Source: Candidatus Poribacteria bacterium
GTDB taxonomy: Bacteria > Poribacteria > WGA-4E > UBA9662
Length of the DNA: 11,794 nucleotides
Assembly (NCBI GenBank): GCA_036339735.1
Contig: JAYZAL010000029.1
Span: 1 to 11,794 of the forward strand
Direction of reading: 5' to 3'
The notes under the pieces are model-generated. The model saw only the letters and a program-made list of their open reading frames with translations. It made no database searches and was not told the DNA's origin. The position numbers and the translations under genes are program-made. This document shows positions 4,328 through 11,794 of the stretch, piece by piece (position 1 is the first letter of the stretch; every line of letters starts with the position of its first letter).

Positions 4328-7300
4328 CTATTTTAGGATAATCATCTTTTTCAACCGATTATCTGAGCTAGAATTATCCAGACCCATTGAGGATGGATAA
4401 TCCACTACCTCAATTTGGTAAAAATACAAGCCACTACTAACTTGTTCGCCCTGACCGTTGCGACCATCCCAGTGAGCTGCTCGATCTCTATTGTAGTAAG
4501 TTCCTGCGACTTGATGCCCAAGCCTAAGTTGTCGGATCGGATCTCCATCAGAATTGAAAAGGTTCATAACCACAAAACCATCATTAGCTAATTGATAAGG
4601 AATCCAGGTTTCTGGGTTGAACGGGTTAGGATAATTCTGTAGTAGACGAGTCTGATCAGGCAAAGGCTGCCAGCTTACGGAATGGTAACTGACTGCACGT
4701 TGTAAATCCTGATCTGACAAAATGACTGTAACCGGTTCGAAAGCCGTTCGACCATCATCGGTTAAAGCGCGAAGTCTTATTTGATCTCCAATTGCAACTA
4801 CGGGGCGTCGATTTAAATCAACAAAACTTGCTAGAGCACGAGATCCACTATCAACAGGCAAAATCAGGTTTTGGCTAGTTCTTAAATTGGTAACCTCAAT
4901 GGCTGACGCAGACATTAAAACGTTTGTGTCCAATGCCATAACAAATGCCCAAAAAGGTTGACTAAATTCTTTGTCTATCCAAACTGGAGCTGCTGCCGGT
5001 TTAGTAGAATTATCCCAAACCGTTCCGGCAAGCGTCATTTCTTGTGTAGCTAATACGTTGACAATGTAACCAACACCACCTTCTAAGTCAAAAGACTCAC
5101 TGACTGACAAGCCGGGGATATATGGAACAAACGTTTGGGCATCCACATCAAATCTCATGATCAGAGTTGCATTGATTTTTTTTGCTAAAATCTCAGCCGT
5201 CATACCATCAATCGGTTGAACAGGAAGGGATATAAAATTTAGCCCTTTTTGTAATTGAATAGTAAACTGACCAGTTGGCTTTGTAGTAAAATAGGATTCC
5301 TCAGAGAAGGAAGACCACATACCTTCAGCATCTTGATAACGAACTCTCCAGTAATAAGTTTGATTCAGCTCGATTAACTTCTTAACGCGGATCTGAACTA
5401 AATTTTGAGTATCTCTGCCGCTATCGAAAACGAGGACCTCGTAGTTGCCAGGCATAGACGTTATTTGCCATTGAGATGCTCGGTGTTGGTTGAGTGGGTT
5501 CGGGTCAGAGAAATCCGACCCTCGTAGTTGAACGCCCTCACCACTTTCTAGTTGTAAGCGGGCTACTTGGTGGTCCCTGAAGGGCAGGCTGATCGGCCTG
5601 TTAGGTGGTCGTGCTAGCTGAGCTTCAGCTGGCGTTTTAAACAAATTCGTTCTCTTAACTGAAGTCGTTTGGTCATTTGCCGTAGCCCGTAAACGAAGGG
5701 TATAGTTGCCATCCGGCAGCTGATCTGTATCCCAGATAGCTAACGGAATATCTGAAGAAACATTAGCTTGTCCATCAATAATAGTAGTCCAACCATCTGT
5801 TGCATTAGAACCAGGAGCAAATTCCAATAGCCAATTGATTACACCTTGGCTCACCTCAGCTACTCCCAGTACTTCGATTTTTCCCATTAGTTGGATGTCA
5901 TCAACAGGAGCAACTAAATTTACAGTTGGCAACGAAGTCATATATTTGACTGTTTTACTATCAGATATACGAATATTTCCAGCGTTATCTGTGGCACGTG
6001 CACGGAAATCTAGCAAAACATCGTCAGTCGGTGGAGTGAAAGCATACTGCCAATCAGTTAATTGTGGATTGAAGTTGGGATTACTAGTATCATCAACTAG
6101 GACCCATCCAAATCCACTATCGATCTCAATCCTTCTCACACCAGAAAAGGTGTCCGCCACTTTGCCCGACAAGTAAATTTGACCTTCATGAAAGTTTGCT
6201 CTAGAGGCTGGGGATAAAATTTCGATTCTTGGGGCATCATTGTCAATAATCAATGTATTCGAAGAAACTGTTGAATAGTTGCCAGTTTCATCCCTAATCT
6301 CTAGGTTAAGATAAGTACTTGCTACACCTGTAAAGTCCCGTCCTGGGATATAGCCACTAATAGTGCCATCAGCTAAGACTTCAACTTGTTCGGTAAATTT
6401 AACTGCCAAGTCTCCTGCGTATAATGTTATCGCTGTCACTTCAGCTCCAACTTCTGTAGTACCACTTACCATCATTTTTGCATCATTTCGGATAAAACGA
6501 ACACCTTCATCGTCGAAATCTGACTCTAGGCCCGCACCAGAAATAATTGCTGAGGCCTGAGGTGGTGTGTTGTCAACCTTGACATTGATACTTTTCACGA
6601 CAGTTATGACATTAGTGTCAGTTACACGGAGTCGTAGCTGGTAGTCTCCATCTACAACTTGAGTTGTGTCCCACTGACCCAATTGACTCATTTGAGGCGG
6701 TTGGTTAGAAAATTGAATCGGGGTGAAATTTGCTGGTTCCAATCCGGCCACAGAATAGTCAAGCGTCCAGCTTTGAAGATTGGATCCTTCAGCCCTTCCA
6801 AGAATTGTGACTACACCGAGAATTCTCCGAATTTCTGTTGTTTGTTTCGCTTCATCTTCGATACTTTTCTGATCAGGCAGACGAATTTGAGATTGAATGT
6901 GATTGGCTAGGACGACCGGTTTAGAGATAGCTGTATCAGAAAGTCGAGGTAAAATGTAGGCTTCTACCGATTCTAATACGGCCTCATCAGTTGAACCGCC
7001 AACTGCGTAGATAGTACGACCAATAGAAACAAGGCCATGATACCGTCGGGCGGTCGGCATAGGAGCTGCTGTTGACCAGGTATCAGTAGCGGGGTGGTAG
7101 ACCTCAACGGTGTTCAACACCCTCGTTCCATCATGCCCACCAATAACGTATATTTTATCCCCAACGACTGTTGCAGCAACTCCGTATCGTGCTGTGGGCA
7201 TTGACTTGATTGTTCTCCAAACATCCCGGTTGGGGTCATACATTTCCACAGTTGCCAAATAACCATTGCTGTGTCCGCCGATAGCATAAATTTTTTGCCC

Positions 7301-8188
7301 CAAAGTTACAGCTGCAAAAGATTGACGTACCGTATTCATTGGAGCTTTAGTTTCCCAAAGGTCTTGTGCTATATTGTACGCCTCATTGCTGCGAACCAGC
7401 GAGCTGCCATCATCTCCACCTAGTACATAAATTACATCGTTGACTAGAACTGCGGACAATGCTTTACGAGCGGTCGGCATGGGTTGTACCATCTGTACCG
7501 ATTCAGGTTGGAAAGATACAAACTCGTTAGTTGTTAGTCGGGTTTTTCCATCATACCCACCAATCAAGTAGATGCCGCTATTATGAGTAACGGCAGCCAA
7601 ATCGATCCGAGCTGAAACAGGCAAGGCTGTTGCTGGCTGCCAAGTATTTACTGTGGGGTTGTATTCTTCACTGTTAGCCAGTTTGCCACGATTATGGCCA
7701 CGAATAGCAATTATCTTTCCGTTCCAGACAACCACATTAGGAAATGCTCTGGGGTTTTCTAGAGGCGCTACGGATTGCCAAGTCCCCCCCAAACCAATTT
7801 CTGTATCATAAACCTGCATGCGAAATAGTAATGCAGGAAGGTATGCTCCAGATGGACTGTTGAGACCTAAGCGTGTATCCCACTCTAAGATATGCTGACC
7901 CGCTGGCTTCGGCGCATTGTTGAAAATAGCAGTTTCATCGATTAGTATCCAAGTAGCACCGCCGTCAGTACTATACTTCCAACCTCCTGTCGACAACTGC
8001 TTTCCTTCTGCATCAGCAGTTGTATAATGGATTTTCAGGATCCCATTATTTCCTTCGATACGATCAATAGTCAATAATGGCACATCCGAAGCATCAGCTT
8101 CCGGAGTGAAAAAGAAAAAAAAGAGTCCTATGATACCAACAGTAAAATAGAGCCAAATTGTAGTTTTTGCAGAATTGTCCGCCCTCAT
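4328..8188 (-). CDS. Large secreted multidomain protein: signal peptide, six Kelch repeats, several Ig-like domains, FN3-like domain, C-terminal FlgD-Ig/T9SS-A-like sorting domain
   Basis: Hydrophobic N-terminus ending ADA. Six Kelch blades (e.g. WSTAAPMPTARRYHGLVSIGRTIYAVGG) at ~6944-7783. Repeated WDT..DG.Y.LRLR Ig-like units, an FN3-like TYYWRVRYQD..G.WS segment, and a C-terminal LLQNYPNPFNPETWIPYQLA...WDGRN..GE.VSSGLYFYQI...KMIILK. Confidence 0.9.
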   Translation of the reverse strand: MRADNSAKTTIWLYFTVGIIGLFFFFFTPEADASDVPLLTIDRIEGNNGILKIHYTTADAEGKQLSTGGWKYSTDGGATWILIDETAIFNNAPKPAGQHILEWDTRLGLNSPSGAYLPALLFRMQVYDTEIGLGGTWQSVAPLENPRAFPNVVVWNGKIIAIRGHNRGKLANSEEYNPTVNTWQPATALPVSARIDLAAVTHNSGIYLIGGYDGKTRLTTNEFVSFQPESVQMVQPMPTARKALSAVLVNDVIYVLGGDDGSSLVRSNEAYNIAQDLWETKAPMNTVRQSFAAVTLGQKIYAIGGHSNGYLATVEMYDPNRDVWRTIKSMPTARYGVAATVVGDKIYVIGGHDGTRVLNTVEVYHPATDTWSTAAPMPTARRYHGLVSIGRTIYAVGGSTDEAVLESVEAYILPRLSDTAISKPVVLANHIQSQIRLPDQKSIEDEAKQTTEIRRILGVVTILGRAEGSNLQSWTLDYSVAGLEPANFTPIQFSNQPPQMSQLGQWDTTQVVDGDYQLRLRVTDTNVITVVKSINVKVDNTPPQASAIISGAGLESDFDDEGVRFIRNDAKMMVSGTTEVGAEVTAITLYAGDLAVKFTEQVEVLADGTISGYIPGRDFTGVASTYLNLEIRDETGNYSTVSSNTLIIDNDAPRIEILSPASRANFHEGQIYLSGKVADTFSGVRRIEIDSGFGWVLVDDTSNPNFNPQLTDWQYAFTPPTDDVLLDFRARATDNAGNIRISDSKTVKYMTSLPTVNLVAPVDDIQLMGKIEVLGVAEVSQGVINWLLEFAPGSNATDGWTTIIDGQANVSSDIPLAIWDTDQLPDGNYTLRLRATANDQTTSVKRTNLFKTPAEAQLARPPNRPISLPFRDHQVARLQLESGEGVQLRGSDFSDPNPLNQHRASQWQITSMPGNYEVLVFDSGRDTQNLVQIRVKKLIELNQTYYWRVRYQDAEGMWSSFSEESYFTTKPTGQFTIQLQKGLNFISLPVQPIDGMTAEILAKKINATLIMRFDVDAQTFVPYIPGLSVSESFDLEGGVGYIVNVLATQEMTLAGTVWDNSTKPAAAPVWIDKEFSQPFWAFVMALDTNVLMSASAIEVTNLRTSQNLILPVDSGSRALASFVDLNRRPVVAIGDQIRLRALTDDGRTAFEPVTVILSDQDLQRAVSYHSVSWQPLPDQTRLLQNYPNPFNPETWIPYQLANDGFVVMNLFNSDGDPIRQLRLGHQVAGTYYNRDRAAHWDGRNGQGEQVSSGLYFYQIEVVDYPSSMGLDNSSSDNRLKKMIILK

Positions 8189-9151: not shown

Positions 9152-9517
9152 GGGGGTGTCACGGTTTCGACGGAAGCAGTTGAGATTAAGGTTGCATGTC
9201 GAGGATTCCGCAGGCCTCGTTAAATGGGCGGAAACAATTTAATTGCCGATAACCAATTGGCTTTAGCCGCTTAAGCGGCTCGCTCCGTTAATCTGTTGCC
9301 TATCGGATTAACCTGAGCGTCAAAATAATAGGCTTTGCTGGCCTGAGATGTTGGAGGGCAGGTTGGCAAGATTTACTCCATCTAGCTTCGATTGAATCCG
9401 GCATCAGGGAGTTATGGTAAGCGAACGAGGATTAAGAGTCCAGAAAATCTGATGACAAACATGTAGTAGCTTTTTTTGAGATGTTTTCGGACGCGGGTTC
9501 GACTCCCGCCACCTCCA
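9152..9517 (+). ncRNA. ssrA: tmRNA (transfer-messenger RNA); tag peptide (A)ADNQLALAA at 9245-9274
   Basis: 5' end GGGGGTGTCACGGTTTCGAC; 3' end GACGCGGGTTCGACTCCCGCCACCTCCA. The acceptor stem GGGGGTG/CACCTCC has the G3.U alanyl identity pair, and the T-arm is GCGGG-TTCGACT-CCCGC. The tag frame is GCC GAT AAC CAA TTG GCT TTA GCC GCT TAA, with the stop in hairpin AGCCGC-TTAA-GCGGCT. Length 366 nt; CCA is not encoded. Confidence 0.97.
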
Positions 9518-9540
9518 ATTTCTCTTTTCAAATCCTTTAG

Positions 9541-9553
9541 TATCAAGGATTTA
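9541..9553 (+). promoter_or_regulatory. IHF-consensus site in the putative attL arm
   Basis: TATCAAGGATTTA matches WATCAANNNNTTR exactly. It overlaps the inverted repeat AAATCCTT-7 bp-AAGGATTT (9530-9552). Confidence 0.55.
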
Positions 9554-9620
9554 ACCGCTTTTTGATACATTTTGATAGTGGGATGACCATTTTAGTCACA
9601 TTTGAGGTCACACTTCAATC

Positions 9621-10973
9621 ATGTCAAAAAGTAACTCTTATCTAGTTCATAGAAAAACTGGAAGTTCCTATTTCTTCCGTTCCATTATTCCCAAAGACCT
9701 ACAACCCAAGTTAGGCAAAAGAGAATTCCAACTTTCTCTCAGATGCGGAATTCTCAAACAAGCCAAATCTCTATCTTTTCAACTCTTTAATAAAACTCAG
9801 TTGATCTATGCTTCAATTAGAGATGAATCTATGTCTAAGCATATCTCAACTCAACAAATTAAGGAATTACTGAAGCAAGAATTAGATCAAAATAACTCTC
9901 AACAGTCTCAATCATCTAACCAAGAAAAGAACAACTTGGCTAATAATCAAAGCAAACAAAAAATAAGACAAAAATCTTCTGAAGGTGTTTCTTTGGTCGA
10001 ATTATGCAAGAAATTTACAGAATCAAGACTGGATAGAGGTTTTAATGAAAAAACTATCAATGATTATCAAGATTCAAATAATCTGTTGCTGGAGTTTTTT
10101 GGTAATGTTCCTATTGATACTTTGACTCATCAAAATGGCAGGGATTACATCCAATTGCTAAAACATCTACCTACTAATCGGAAGAAAAAATATCCGAATA
10201 AGACGATAAAACAGTTGGTTGAGCTAAAAGATGTTCAATTAATGAGTCCCAGGACAATCAGTAAACACACCGAAAGAATATCGGCTTTGTTTAATTGGGC
10301 GACTAATCAAGGCTACACTAATCAAAACGTGTTCAGGGGCAAATTAGAACCGATTAGAAGCCAGCAGATAATAGAGAAACACTTCACTTCAGATGAAATG
10401 AATCTGATTTTAGGTGATAAGTTGATATCAGAATCATTAGCAATTAACAAACCTGAAAGATACTGGGTAACTTTACTATCAGCTTATTCAGGAGCTAGAT
10501 TGAATGAGATTTGTCAATTGAATGTTTCTGATATTGAAAAGATGGATGGAATTTGGGCAATCAATCTTAATGCTGATGGTGAAGATAAAAGTATTAAAAC
10601 TCAAGCTGGTAAGAGACTTGTTCCTTTACATGCGAAGATTCTGAAACTTGGTTTTCTCGATTATGTGGATCAGATTAGGAATGAAAGTCACCTAAAACTA
10701 TTCCCAAATTTGAAAAAAATGAAAAGCACAGGTTATGGCACAATGATTAGCAGGTGGTTTGCTAAATATTTGAAGAAACTTGGAATTAAAAAGAAAGGTA
10801 AAAACTTTCATTCCTTCAGACATACAGTAGTAAATAGACTAACCAATCAGAAAGTTTATGAACCATTTATTAAAGAGCTAATTGGACATTCTCATGGATC
10901 TTTAACAATGGACGTATATGGAGGAAGAAAACCATTGGATGTATTGTTGAATGAGTGTGTGATTAAAATCTGA
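9621..10973 (+). CDS. Site-specific tyrosine recombinase/integrase with N-terminal DUF6538-like arm-binding domain
   Basis: N-terminal YFFRSIIPKDLQPKLGKREFQLSLR. Catalytic residues are intact: R (YSGARLNEI), K (IKT), HxxR (FHSFRHT), H (LIGHS), Y (TMDVY). Confidence 0.95.
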   Translation: MSKSNSYLVHRKTGSSYFFRSIIPKDLQPKLGKREFQLSLRCGILKQAKSLSFQLFNKTQLIYASIRDESMSKHISTQQIKELLKQELDQNNSQQSQSSNQEKNNLANNQSKQKIRQKSSEGVSLVELCKKFTESRLDRGFNEKTINDYQDSNNLLLEFFGNVPIDTLTHQNGRDYIQLLKHLPTNRKKKYPNKTIKQLVELKDVQLMSPRTISKHTERISALFNWATNQGYTNQNVFRGKLEPIRSQQIIEKHFTSDEMNLILGDKLISESLAINKPERYWVTLLSAYSGARLNEICQLNVSDIEKMDGIWAINLNADGEDKSIKTQAGKRLVPLHAKILKLGFLDYVDQIRNESHLKLFPNLKKMKSTGYGTMISRWFAKYLKKLGIKKKGKNFHSFRHTVVNRLTNQKVYEPFIKELIGHSHGSLTMDVYGGRKPLDVLLNECVIKI

Positions 10974-11016
10974 AGGATTTGGACATTGAATGGAAAAGAC
11001 AAGGTAGAAATTTAAG

Positions 11017-11149
11017 CAGGTAATTTTCTCTTATATAATATAAGAAGATTTTACCTGGTAACTTAAGATCCCAATCTGTGTTATTTTTGTCTTGATGTTC
11101 AGAGCAAGTAAATAATAGAAACCTTTGATCTGATTGACTTAATTGATTT
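11017..11149 (+). repeat. 133-bp direct repeat, copy 1, beginning with an imperfect palindrome (11017-11057)
   Basis: Matches 11662-11794 at 131/133 positions. The differences are 11027 T vs 11672 C and 11038 A vs 11683 T. Confidence 0.97.
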
Positions 11150-11661
11150 AGTTTGTAAGTTAGAAGGTACTACTAAACATATACCATTCAAGCGGGGAAT
11201 TCGCACTATCTAGTAGGAATCTTGTTAATCATTCAGAATCTAGTTGAAGGTCTGATATCAACTCAAAGGTAATGTCTGGAATTCTCTCATTTCTCATTTA
11301 ACCTAAGATAACAATTAATTAGATTTACAAATGTATTTGTTTATCTTCAGGATAGGTAGAGCACTGGAGAAATGTAGACGGTTCAATTTAATAATGAATA
11401 TGATTTACAAATTACTGCCGATTCAATGTTAGTCAATGCATATGCAGGATTTAACATGAACATGGCAGTAATATAAAAGATCCTGTGAAAACATGAAACA
11501 CAACATTGATTTAATACCACAGGAAAGGAAGTGTTGATATCTTTGAATTTGCAGGATTGGTGTTTTCATGGCTACCTAATAATAAATACTATAAGGTGGG
11601 TGTGAAAACGTTAAATCAAGATCTAAAGGATTTGCACACAAAAGATAAAGGCAAATTCAAC

Positions 11662-11794
11662 CAGGTAATTTCCTCTTATATATTATAAGAAGATTTTACC
11701 TGGTAACTTAAGATCCCAATCTGTGTTATTTTTGTCTTGATGTTCAGAGCAAGTAAATAATAGAAACCTTTGATCTGATTGACTTAATTGATTT
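11662..11794 (+). repeat. 133-bp direct repeat, copy 2, reaching the window end (palindrome 11661-11703)
   Basis: Offset 645 bp from copy 1. CCAGGTAATTTCCTCTTATA-TAT-TATAAGAAGATTTTACCTGG forms 20-bp arms with 17 Watson-Crick pairs. Confidence 0.97.

Follow-up and report, generated by a model that had tools for sequence, protein, structure and literature searches.

A conserved non-coding scaffold lies directly behind a tyrosine integrase gene at the end of a Candidatus Poribacteria contig, and its modules recur between unrelated cargo genes at related loci. The explanation that we prefer, and to which we give about an even chance, is that a mobile island, inserted at the tmRNA gene, begins in the contig tail, with the scaffold modules serving as expression punctuation of a tycheposon-like cargo array. 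The modules more likely mark the stops and starts of transcription than serve as recombination sites. Their anatomy, conservation, array organisation and hairpin polarity are observed; termination, promoter activity and the mode of gene exchange are what we infer. The window that we analysed, 11,794 nucleotides long, is an entire contig of the assembly (C29:1-11794), and its features are collected in Table 1.

Table 1. Features of the island start, from the tmRNA gene to the contig end (window positions).
Feature	Position	Strand	Remarks
tmRNA gene, tag ADNQLALAA	9152-9520	+	ARAGORN; Rfam RF00023, 172.8 bits; putative integration target of the island
RAAGGATTTR motif	9529-9538	-	Just past the tmRNA; opposite in orientation to its copies at 10972-10981 and 11625-11634; also in inverted repeats I10 and I13
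Tyrosine integrase, 450 aa	9621-10973	+	Pfam domains DUF6538, Phage_int_SAM_5 (SAM_5) and Phage_integrase
A module, copy 1	10962-11173		Diverged left extension 10962-11007; conserved 45-nt hairpin 11017-11059; A_tail 11071-11173
B1 module, about 110 nt	11174-11283	-	Sharp boundary at 11174; on the minus strand upstream of genes or terminator-type hairpins in relatives
B2 module	11284-11404		Missing from the short C1-B1 form; candidate minus-strand hairpin with many G-U/A-U exchanges
C1 hairpin	11411-11472		Base stem CTGCC/GGCAG; inner stem around GTT/AAC (inverted repeat I2)
E hairpin in Ctail	11483-11524		CCTGTG ... CACAGG; helix of 7 pairs with 91% of cells paired and one compensatory change
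D palindrome	11562-11609		GTTTTCA ... TGAAAAC plus ACCT ... AGGT
A module, copy 2	11615-11794		Hairpin 11660-11704; truncated by the contig end

The integrase gene sits directly beside the 3′ end of the tmRNA gene, as in an island. Its homologues adjoin either tmRNA genes (L062, L065 and L071) or tRNA-Sec genes (L067, L079, L086 and L087), and eight of the ten loci with integrase relatives are labelled Candidatus Poribacteria. Two further marks of an island, replication-type genes and stacked or degraded copies, are found in relatives only. For example, L063 encodes DEAD/ResIII helicase domains on a protein of 635 aa or more, truncated where its contig stops, and related N-termini occur in G003:C138 and L086. 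Tandem integrases, together with fragmentary or decayed ones, are seen in L087, in L086 and in all seven genomes of the family. In a 94%-identical relative (L065) the stretch equivalent to window positions 9497-9580 recurs 3.8 kb downstream. Within the assembly itself neither a duplicate of the tmRNA 3′ end nor a continuing contig was found; the contig ends first. The RAAGGATTTR motif has three matches in the window against 0.23 expected, a number reached in 2 of 200 shuffles.

An earlier, sequence-only reading of this DNA had called the integrase DUF6538-type rather than IntI-like, and the Pfam and NCBIfam searches agree. There is no integron-integrase model among the NCBIfam matches, which are all sub-threshold and Xer-type, the best reaching 61.6 bits against a cut-off of 220 (XerA). 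The enzyme is a tmRNA/tRNA-Sec island integrase, not an integron integrase. A literature search for DUF6538 found no paper. No integrase remnant was detected by tblastn in the sequence between the repeats (best E = 0.14).

The near-identical direct repeat that the same reading had placed 645 nt apart behind the integrase is confirmed. A repeat search of the window gives two copies of 142 nt at 97% identity (11008-11149 and 11653-11794), and gapped blastn lengthens the match to 188 columns at 88.8% (10962-11149 against 11615-11794). The extended alignment of the A copies contains an 8-nt indel and its left portion is far more diverged; in copy 1 this portion overlaps the final codons and stop of the integrase gene. 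The repeats had been described as long palindromes. A hairpin is indeed present, but the palindrome covers just 45 nt of the unit, with arms at 11660-11680 and 11684-11704 in copy 2. That the unit is not an att duplication of the tmRNA gene was rightly judged, as the tmRNA 3′ end is single in the assembly and the repeat is unrelated to it. A CRISPR repeat is likewise ruled out on reading: the unit is far too long, and a search of the whole assembly returns two copies only.

The window being the whole contig, it is the contig itself, and not merely the window, that ends within copy 2, as had been suspected. No piece of sequence beyond 11794 turned up among the assembled contigs of public runs. 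An end of this kind raises the possibility that copy 2 is an assembly artefact, or that the repeat is a one-off local duplication of no wider meaning. The final 90 or so nucleotides (11705-11794) are 100% identical to copy 1, whereas the Ctail-adjacent A copies in L087, L079 and L094 carry a different right flank, and the assembly has just the two copies. Even so, we regard this account as very improbable. The left 90 nt of copy 2, the junction between Ctail and hairpin included, differ from copy 1 and have contiguous homologues in G003:C138 (429 columns, 76%), L087, L079 and L094, all of which share the Ctail-A junction; a contig from an RNA library spans 11605-11706; and the A ... A arrangement is found again in L087, L079, L086 and G003:C138. 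A one-off duplication, which the sequence-only reading had named as its own possible undoing, is not upheld either, with the A unit and the sequence between the copies kept beside homologous integrases elsewhere. For the part of copy 2 that holds the hairpin, the artefact is thereby largely refuted; the identity over 11705-11794 could reflect either gene conversion or an assembler that ran into copy 1.

Behind the integrase the modules run A, B1, B2, C1 hairpin, Ctail (with the E and D hairpins) and A, about 645 nt in all, and the series from integrase to second A recurs in metagenome contigs. The roughly 510 nt between the repeats had been taken for a unique spacer, and this fails: the sequence is multi-copy and conserved across the family. 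The tail modules (B1, B2, C1 hairpin and Ctail) have matches in all six same-family genomes that were compared and in none of 54 from the order's other families. B1 matches number 15 and 11 in two 7-Mb genomes and one or two in the others, and the C region behaves similarly. Within the assembly of our window the stretch between the repeats is single-copy save for a 66% paralog at C7:28012-28326. In two public DNA runs the depth over 11256-11631 is about five to six times the depth over the single-copy flank; the figure pools related organisms and should not be taken as a copy number. The modules account for the breaks that assemblies of this family show just past the integrase.

The 45-nt hairpin is identical at 45 of 45 positions between genera, and the hairpin sequences are conserved far more strongly than their flanks. 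The palindrome of the apical A stem is preserved by compensatory changes in four copies, while one stem pair of C1 exchanges A-T for G-C (10 against 6 of 18 copies). On either side of the A hairpin the copies are still homologous, though diverged, and the sequence does not change suddenly at the base of the stem; 12 of the 30 distinct A hairpins lie within 72 nt of the end of integrase C-terminal coding sequence. The sharp boundary of B1, on the other hand, joins at least eight unrelated flanks. A strict C1 pattern finds one locus in the genome, about the chance rate (3 hits in two shuffled genomes), so the C1 copy of this genome rests on homology and not on the pattern. The longest ORF between the A modules reaches 46 aa at most, and the lengths of the indels in the unit are not multiples of three. 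B1 was rejected as a structured RNA, with no consensus fold (consensus energy -0.35 kcal/mol). Across the window Rfam 15 gives only the tmRNA at gathering score, and a permissive search of 10900-11794 returns nothing at E-value < 0.1.

The arrays in related loci show how the modules are used. The array-type organisation proposed from the sequence alone survives in part: units alternate with unrelated cargo genes in relatives, but the spacer is not unique. Among 14 of the roughly 95 loci, selected for holding arrays, 72 of the 73 module hits with an orientation point the same way as the others of their locus, and one order is kept in the longer arrays. Besides integrases, these arrays enclose 40 ORFs of 100 aa or more, of which 30 run opposite to the modules and the integrase; the remaining 10 run the other way. 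The cargo genes are of many kinds (LamG, lipoprotein, MazG-like, glyoxalase, desaturase, cyclase-TPR and hexapeptide transferase), and they are found at various points of the unit: after B1, after C1, after Ctail, or between B1 and B2, where L079 has a 558-aa ORF. In G003:C138 a LamG gene is flanked by two copies of C1, against the single C1 of the window. The empty state is also found elsewhere; in L087 an integrase fragment is followed by an empty unit with A copies about 630 nt apart. Modules also stand singly, upstream of protein genes. About 16 of 54 B1 copies (by our own count) are followed, on the minus strand, by two hairpins, one short and the other GC-rich and variable, with a run of five T after these in at least four of the copies.

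What might such modules do? The A hairpin is polar. In all 30 copies the 15 nt after the hairpin hold 7 to 10 T on the minus strand (mean 8.2) and 2 to 5 on the plus strand (mean 3.3); a U-rich tract would thus follow the stem-loop on the transcribed strand, as in an intrinsic terminator. The hairpin also lies some 120-135 nt past the stop of a convergent gene in L024, L023, L087 and L079, three of these genes carrying a T9SS C-terminal domain. With this polarity and this location after convergent stops, A fits a terminator better than a recombination site. That said, the stem of A is rich in A+T instead of G+C and is interrupted by an internal loop, and a scan with a consensus terminator did not call it. 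The near-invariance of the 45 nt exceeds what a terminator needs and suggests recognition by a protein, as does the conservation of C1 and D. For promoter activity, the best sigma-70-like site of the tail falls in the most conserved portion of Ctail, where the D palindrome encloses it on the minus strand (TTCACA, 16 nt, TATTAT, from 11606 to 11579). Promoter-like sites are not enriched in the region, where six were found against 9.9 expected. Consensus folds were rejected as a means of picking the transcribed strand, as both strands fold alike, and G-U usage is inconsistent, favouring the plus strand for C1 and the minus strand for the B2 helix.

We describe the following model in conditional terms. 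An island would have integrated at the tmRNA gene of this metagenome-assembled genome, bringing the scaffold directly after its integrase, and the two A modules would bound its first cargo slot, which appears to be empty in this genome. In related islands, where the modules recur whole or in part between unrelated genes mostly running towards the integrase, they may punctuate minus-strand transcription units: A as a terminator-type hairpin with the added role of shielding the convergent integrase, Ctail as the carrier of a promoter within a palindrome, and B1 as a leader or second promoter. Slot genes could be gained, lost or swapped by recombination among the repeated modules and by the stacking of islands at one site, presumably not by the integrase acting on the hairpins. 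Simple homologous exchange leaves the sharp B1 boundary unexplained, as this has the look of a defined junction.

That junction counts in favour of another account, integron-like capture, in which A, C1 and perhaps D are recombination sites, a tyrosine recombinase (the adjacent DUF6538-type enzyme or another) moves single-gene cassettes, and the window shows an empty cassette. We think this unlikely. More doubtful still is its stronger form, that the three are sites of a previously undescribed cassette-capture platform on the tmRNA/tRNA-Sec islands of pelagic Poribacteria, served by the DUF6538-type integrase and amounting to an integron analogue built from different parts. Unrelated small genes in one orientation, parted by conserved imperfect palindromes beside a tyrosine recombinase, speak for capture, as do hairpins conserved far more strongly than their flanks, the C1 duplication around the LamG gene and the pair exchange in C1. 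The cargo types also appear to resemble those of chromosomal integrons. However, the integrase matches no integron integrase, has a tmRNA/tRNA-Sec target of its own, and is convergent with the cargo where an integron has a divergent integrase, attI and a co-oriented array; here A follows the integrase stop. Integron attC sites are imperfect palindromes ending in RYYYAAC and GTTRRRY. Such ends had been reported as not clear, and we read the A and C1 hairpins in the same way: the boxes are kept neither in the flanks of 30 A hairpins nor at the ends of 18 C1 copies, and C1 has its 5′ GTT and 3′ AAC in the opposite arrangement, internal to the base stem. Genes occur at several points of the unit rather than at one crossover point, the flanks of A show no switch at the stem base, and the T-rich polarity has no role in a capture model. 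The search for excised circles of about 645 bp, proposed along with the claim, found no excised or deleted form, and no joint that skips the 645-nt unit or closes it into a circle, in the assembled contigs of public runs. What stands of the recombination-site claim, then, are the conserved units and cargo arrays; an integron integrase and attC boxes are missing, the assembled contigs show no excised form, and a terminator fits better. In the accessible portions of the literature we found no relevant work on integrons in Poribacteria.

Also improbable, in our judgement, is that the 400-560 nt or so between A hairpins form an island ncRNA gene, transcribed on the minus strand from the Ctail promoter and ending at the A1 hairpin. 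Such an RNA might, for example, regulate the convergent integrase, and copies between cargo genes would be duplicates or derived leaders; modules are, however, also found on their own ahead of protein genes. In its favour, the empty unit is itself conserved, in the window and independently in L087, and the short ORFs and the indel lengths point the same way. The minus-strand consensus fold has 92.1% of cells paired against 38-44% in slid controls, with eight pairs changing on both sides, but the structure was predicted from the very alignment on which it was scored. Moreover, folding is no weaker on the plus strand (-32.6 against -30.1 kcal/mol), most pairs lie within palindromes that read alike on either strand, B1 alone is without a consensus fold, and no Rfam family matches. 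Contigs from RNA libraries of two studies cover 11017-11706 piecewise, with the integrase body mostly uncovered in X15, although these contigs are strandless and of low depth, RNA libraries may hold DNA, and the modules are multi-copy in the community.

If punctuation is the right reading, the mobile islands of uncultured marine bacteria have a standardised non-coding frame that is reused around many unrelated cargo genes. This would be a simple means for islands to keep new genes expressed and insulated, with an empty slot conserved by the integrase and the modules offering homology handles for gene swapping between islands. If the hairpins were recombination sites instead, they would represent a second, independent invention of integron-like gene capture.

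How does the scaffold compare with known systems? Integron arrays, with IntI, attI, attC and species-specific repeats, likewise place a tyrosine recombinase by mostly co-oriented, unrelated small genes and conserved imperfect palindromes. Here, by contrast, there is no IntI signature and no attC end boxes, the convergent integrase has its own tmRNA/tRNA-Sec site, and the repeat unit is a multi-module composite of up to 645 nt with genes at several positions. REP/BIME-type or IS200/IS605-derived palindromes are also short, conserved, imperfect and intergenic, with sharp ends and no terminal inverted repeats, but our modules are low-copy (1-15 per genome) and tied to integrase islands. An origin from a MITE or IS200/IS605 element was rejected: B1 copies are direct and not inverted, and no link to Y1 or TnpB was found. 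The Y1 (HUH) transposase PF01797 is absent from G000, G002 and G005, all of which have the modules, and lies on other contigs in G003 and G004; a TnpB-type domain was found in G004 only.

Intrinsic (Rho-independent) terminators resemble A in having a stem-loop with T-rich sequence behind it on one strand and in lying downstream of stop codons, and differ from it in that the A stem is AT-rich, has an internal loop, is uncalled by the consensus scan and is near-invariant across genera. The ‘morons’ of phages and satellites are genes that sit in a mobile element together with a promoter and a terminator of their own. Our cargo genes similarly each lie between sequences that resemble promoters and terminators, and they run against the integrase of the element, but here the flanks of different genes copy the same few conserved modules, and the empty slot is itself conserved.

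The closest overall comparison is with the tycheposons of Prochlorococcus (bioRxiv 10.1101/2020.12.28.424599). The Poribacteria island belongs to another host phylum, has tRNA-Sec as a second target and is known here by its near end, the far end being unassembled; in the accessible part of the tycheposon description we found no repeated 645-nt hairpin scaffold between cargo genes. As far as that part goes, the two have much in common: a tyrosine recombinase beside a tRNA or tmRNA gene, helicase- or primase-type genes (here in related islands), stacking at one site with integrase fragments left behind, cargo genes, and a host among the bacteria of the marine plankton.

The window's non-coding tail is most economically read as belonging to islands whose cargo would be arranged in minus-strand transcription units, punctuated by a few reused modules (see the table). 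The sequence-only reading started from a long direct repeat behind the integrase with 645-bp spacing, and this is indeed the only such repeat in the window (11008-11149 and 11653-11794, 142 nt, 97% identity). In a gapped comparison it extends left to 10962 and 11615 (188 columns, 88.8% identity, an 8-nt indel), so that the unit starts within the last integrase codons. The palindromic part is just 45 nt with 21-nt arms (11017-11059 in copy 1, 11660-11704 in copy 2), and the single-stranded DNA of both stretches folds better than shuffled controls (z-scores -3.3 to -4.9). A search of the assembly with the tmRNA 3' end showed that the repeat is not the att duplication, in agreement with the sequence-only reading, and neither repeat nor spacer matches a known RNA family.

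Features of the window; limits of the tail modules were set by match starts and ends
Feature	Position	Strand	Remark
tmRNA gene	9152-9520		
RAAGGATTTR motif	9529-9538	-	inverted copy, directly past tmRNA
Tyrosine integrase	9621-10973		450 aa; DUF6538, SAM-like and catalytic domains
RAAGGATTTR motif	10972-10981	+	direct copy at integrase stop
A hairpin	11008-11070		
A_tail	11071-11173		
B1	11174-11283		
B2	11284-11404		
C1	11405-11478		
Ctail	11479-11614		
RAAGGATTTR motif	11625-11634	+	third copy, ahead of A copy 2

The window is the entire contig C29, so the contig itself stops inside copy 2, which bears out the suspected assembly break. The source assembly (107 contigs, 92% complete) holds exactly two copies, but this is no one-off duplication, as the modules are conserved beside homologous integrases elsewhere. 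Nor is copy 2 a simple assembly artefact: its Ctail-to-hairpin junction differs from copy 1, and contiguous homologues of that junction occur in four other contigs. The contig's final ~90 nt are provisional: they match copy 1 exactly, whereas their counterparts in three other loci (L087, L079 and L094) carry a different right flank. A contig from an RNA library also spans the junction; these public-run data consist of assembled contigs only, hence transcript ends, strands and rare junctions are not visible there.

The ~510 bp between the copies had been taken as unique. This does not hold: the tail matches 6/6 other genomes of the family versus 0/54 genomes of the order's remaining families, and B1 is multi-copy, with 15 and 11 matches in two 7-Mb genomes and one or two in each other genome. 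The C region behaves alike. Many module copies are found where a contig stops or on very short contigs (500-700 bp), and the spacer holds no ORF longer than 46 aa. A weak paralog of B1-B2-C1 (window 11174-11485; 66% over 318 nt, minus strand) occurs in the same genome at C7:28012-28326, in a long-ORF-free stretch of a 57-kb contig.

The order A, A_tail, B1, B2, C1, Ctail, A is kept across loci, with missing pieces or inserted genes. Homologous integrases do have the repeat and its intervening modules beside them, in some cases with genes inserted, a check that the sequence-only reading had proposed. In L087 an integrase fragment precedes an equally empty unit (module identities 79-97%, A copies ~630 nt apart), followed by a convergent gene with a T9SS-type C-terminal domain at its end. 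In L079 a 558-aa ORF is inserted between B1 and B2, and in a related genome (G003:C138) a LamG-domain gene is flanked by C1 hairpins on both sides, against a single C1 in the window. Orientation was counted in 14 of ~95 fetched loci, picked for holding arrays: 72/73 non-palindromic module matches agree with the orientation of their own locus, and of the 40 ORFs inside the arrays that reach 100 aa and do not encode integrases, 30 point against the modules and towards the integrase. The cargo proteins scanned are mutually unrelated (LamG, small lipoprotein, T9SS C-terminal fragment, MazG-like, glyoxalase, fatty-acid desaturase, cyclase-TPR and hexapeptide transferase); a helicase-domain protein is encoded deeper in the islands. 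The window itself encodes a 1286-aa protein (4328-8188, minus strand) with Kelch repeats and a C-terminal FlgD-Ig/T9SS-type domain, the type that adjoins A modules in islands.

What might the modules do? An A-hairpin scan of metagenome contigs gave 22 stretches, which bring the distinct A copies to 30 once the window and the genome loci are added. The hairpin is nearly invariant, a copy from another genus being identical to the window at 45/45 nt with flanks at ~70-80%; in four copies the apical stem is altered on both sides and the palindrome preserved. The flanks are diverged homologues on both sides, with no abrupt switch at the stem base. In all 30 copies the 15 nt after the hairpin hold 7-10 T on the minus strand and 2-5 on the plus strand. 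In L024, L023, L087 and L079, a minus-strand gene stops right before A_tail, with the hairpin ~120-135 nt farther on. This polarity and position suggest that A would be a terminator-type hairpin; 12/30 copies lie within 72 nt of the C-terminal coding end of an integrase, and at the first slot A may also separate the convergent integrase from transcripts of the cargo.

Two additional inverted repeats lie in Ctail: in the D palindrome 73.6% of cells pair, versus 33-45% in slid controls, and the E hairpin has 7 pairs with one compensatory change. The best sigma-70-like site predicted in the region lies within D (minus strand, 11606 to 11579), and this stretch is the most conserved portion of Ctail across genera. 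Ctail may be a promoter set in a palindrome, an arrangement suggestive of regulation. B1 could be a leader or a second promoter. Its edge at 11174 is sharp, with at least eight unrelated sequence classes (read by eye) beyond it among 54 distinct copies; one class is A_tail. In a second, of ~16 copies, B1 leads on the minus strand into a short hairpin and then a variable, GC-rich one, with a run of 5 T after them in at least four. Other classes are 5' regions of genes. B1 has no consensus fold. ORFs of 72-76 aa, comprising nothing beyond the end of a T9SS C-terminal sorting domain, begin at the ATG closing B1 (L024:1674-1904, L023:6616-6834, L026:7056-7286 and also L078), which looks like a cut through a secreted-protein gene at the B1 junction with later copying of that junction.

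Could the modules instead have an integron-like capture role? We consider this unlikely. By the usual end-box criterion neither A nor the C1 hairpin (~54 nt, CTGCC/GGCAG base, inner stem around GTT/AAC and, among 18 distinct copies, 10 with A-T and 6 with G-C at one inner pair) qualifies as an attC site, much as anticipated, and the integrase, of DUF6538 type and, as first described, not IntI-like, has no match to the integron-integrase signature. The idea stays alive because punctuation alone explains poorly why three different hairpins are so strongly conserved in sequence, why B1 ends in a sharp junction and why C1 is duplicated around a gene. It is also possible that one non-coding RNA spans the unit, with 92% of cells paired in a consensus minus-strand fold, a structure, however, predicted from the very alignment on which it was scored; moreover, the plus strand folds equally well and palindromes account for most pairs. 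No link to Y1 or TnpB transposases was found.

The integrase gene starts 100 nt past the tmRNA gene. Its relatives, 8/10 of whose loci are named as Candidatus Poribacteria MAGs, adjoin tmRNA (L062, L065, L071) or tRNA-Sec (L067, L079, L086, L087). Several integrase copies occur in 7/7 family genomes, many fragmentary or with internal stops. In L065, the closest relative (94% DNA identity over tmRNA and integrase), window 9497-9580 is duplicated 3.8 kb downstream at 7728-7811. This is the picture expected of islands integrating at these genes and stacking. The stretch L065:4975-7811 has an integrase cut at residue 327 and two other ORFs in place of the A-B-C scaffold; with the duplicate at its end, it would be a small island or else the point where a second one begins. 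Next to tRNA-Sec, single contigs of L087 and L086 carry as many as four tandem copies or fragments of integrases of this family, each with A-type modules behind it; such a stack would hold islands that differ in age. The window's own genome has a second long paralog (C49:55230-56840, 58% identity, open over 562 aa) along with two decayed copies (C77:44749-45369 and C49:14687-14842), none of the three followed by A-B-C modules. The RAAGGATTTR motif has 3 matches in the window versus 0.23 expected, two of them bracketing the integrase gene; also conserved upstream of A hairpins at other loci, it may be a protein-binding site.

Under the punctuation reading, the window would comprise the integrase, one empty slot and then the terminator of the next unit, impassable for the assembler. 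Genes would be gained, lost and exchanged by recombination among the repeated modules, and also through islands stacking at one site. The latter would resemble the stacking described for the tycheposons of Prochlorococcus (bioRxiv 10.1101/2020.12.28.424599).
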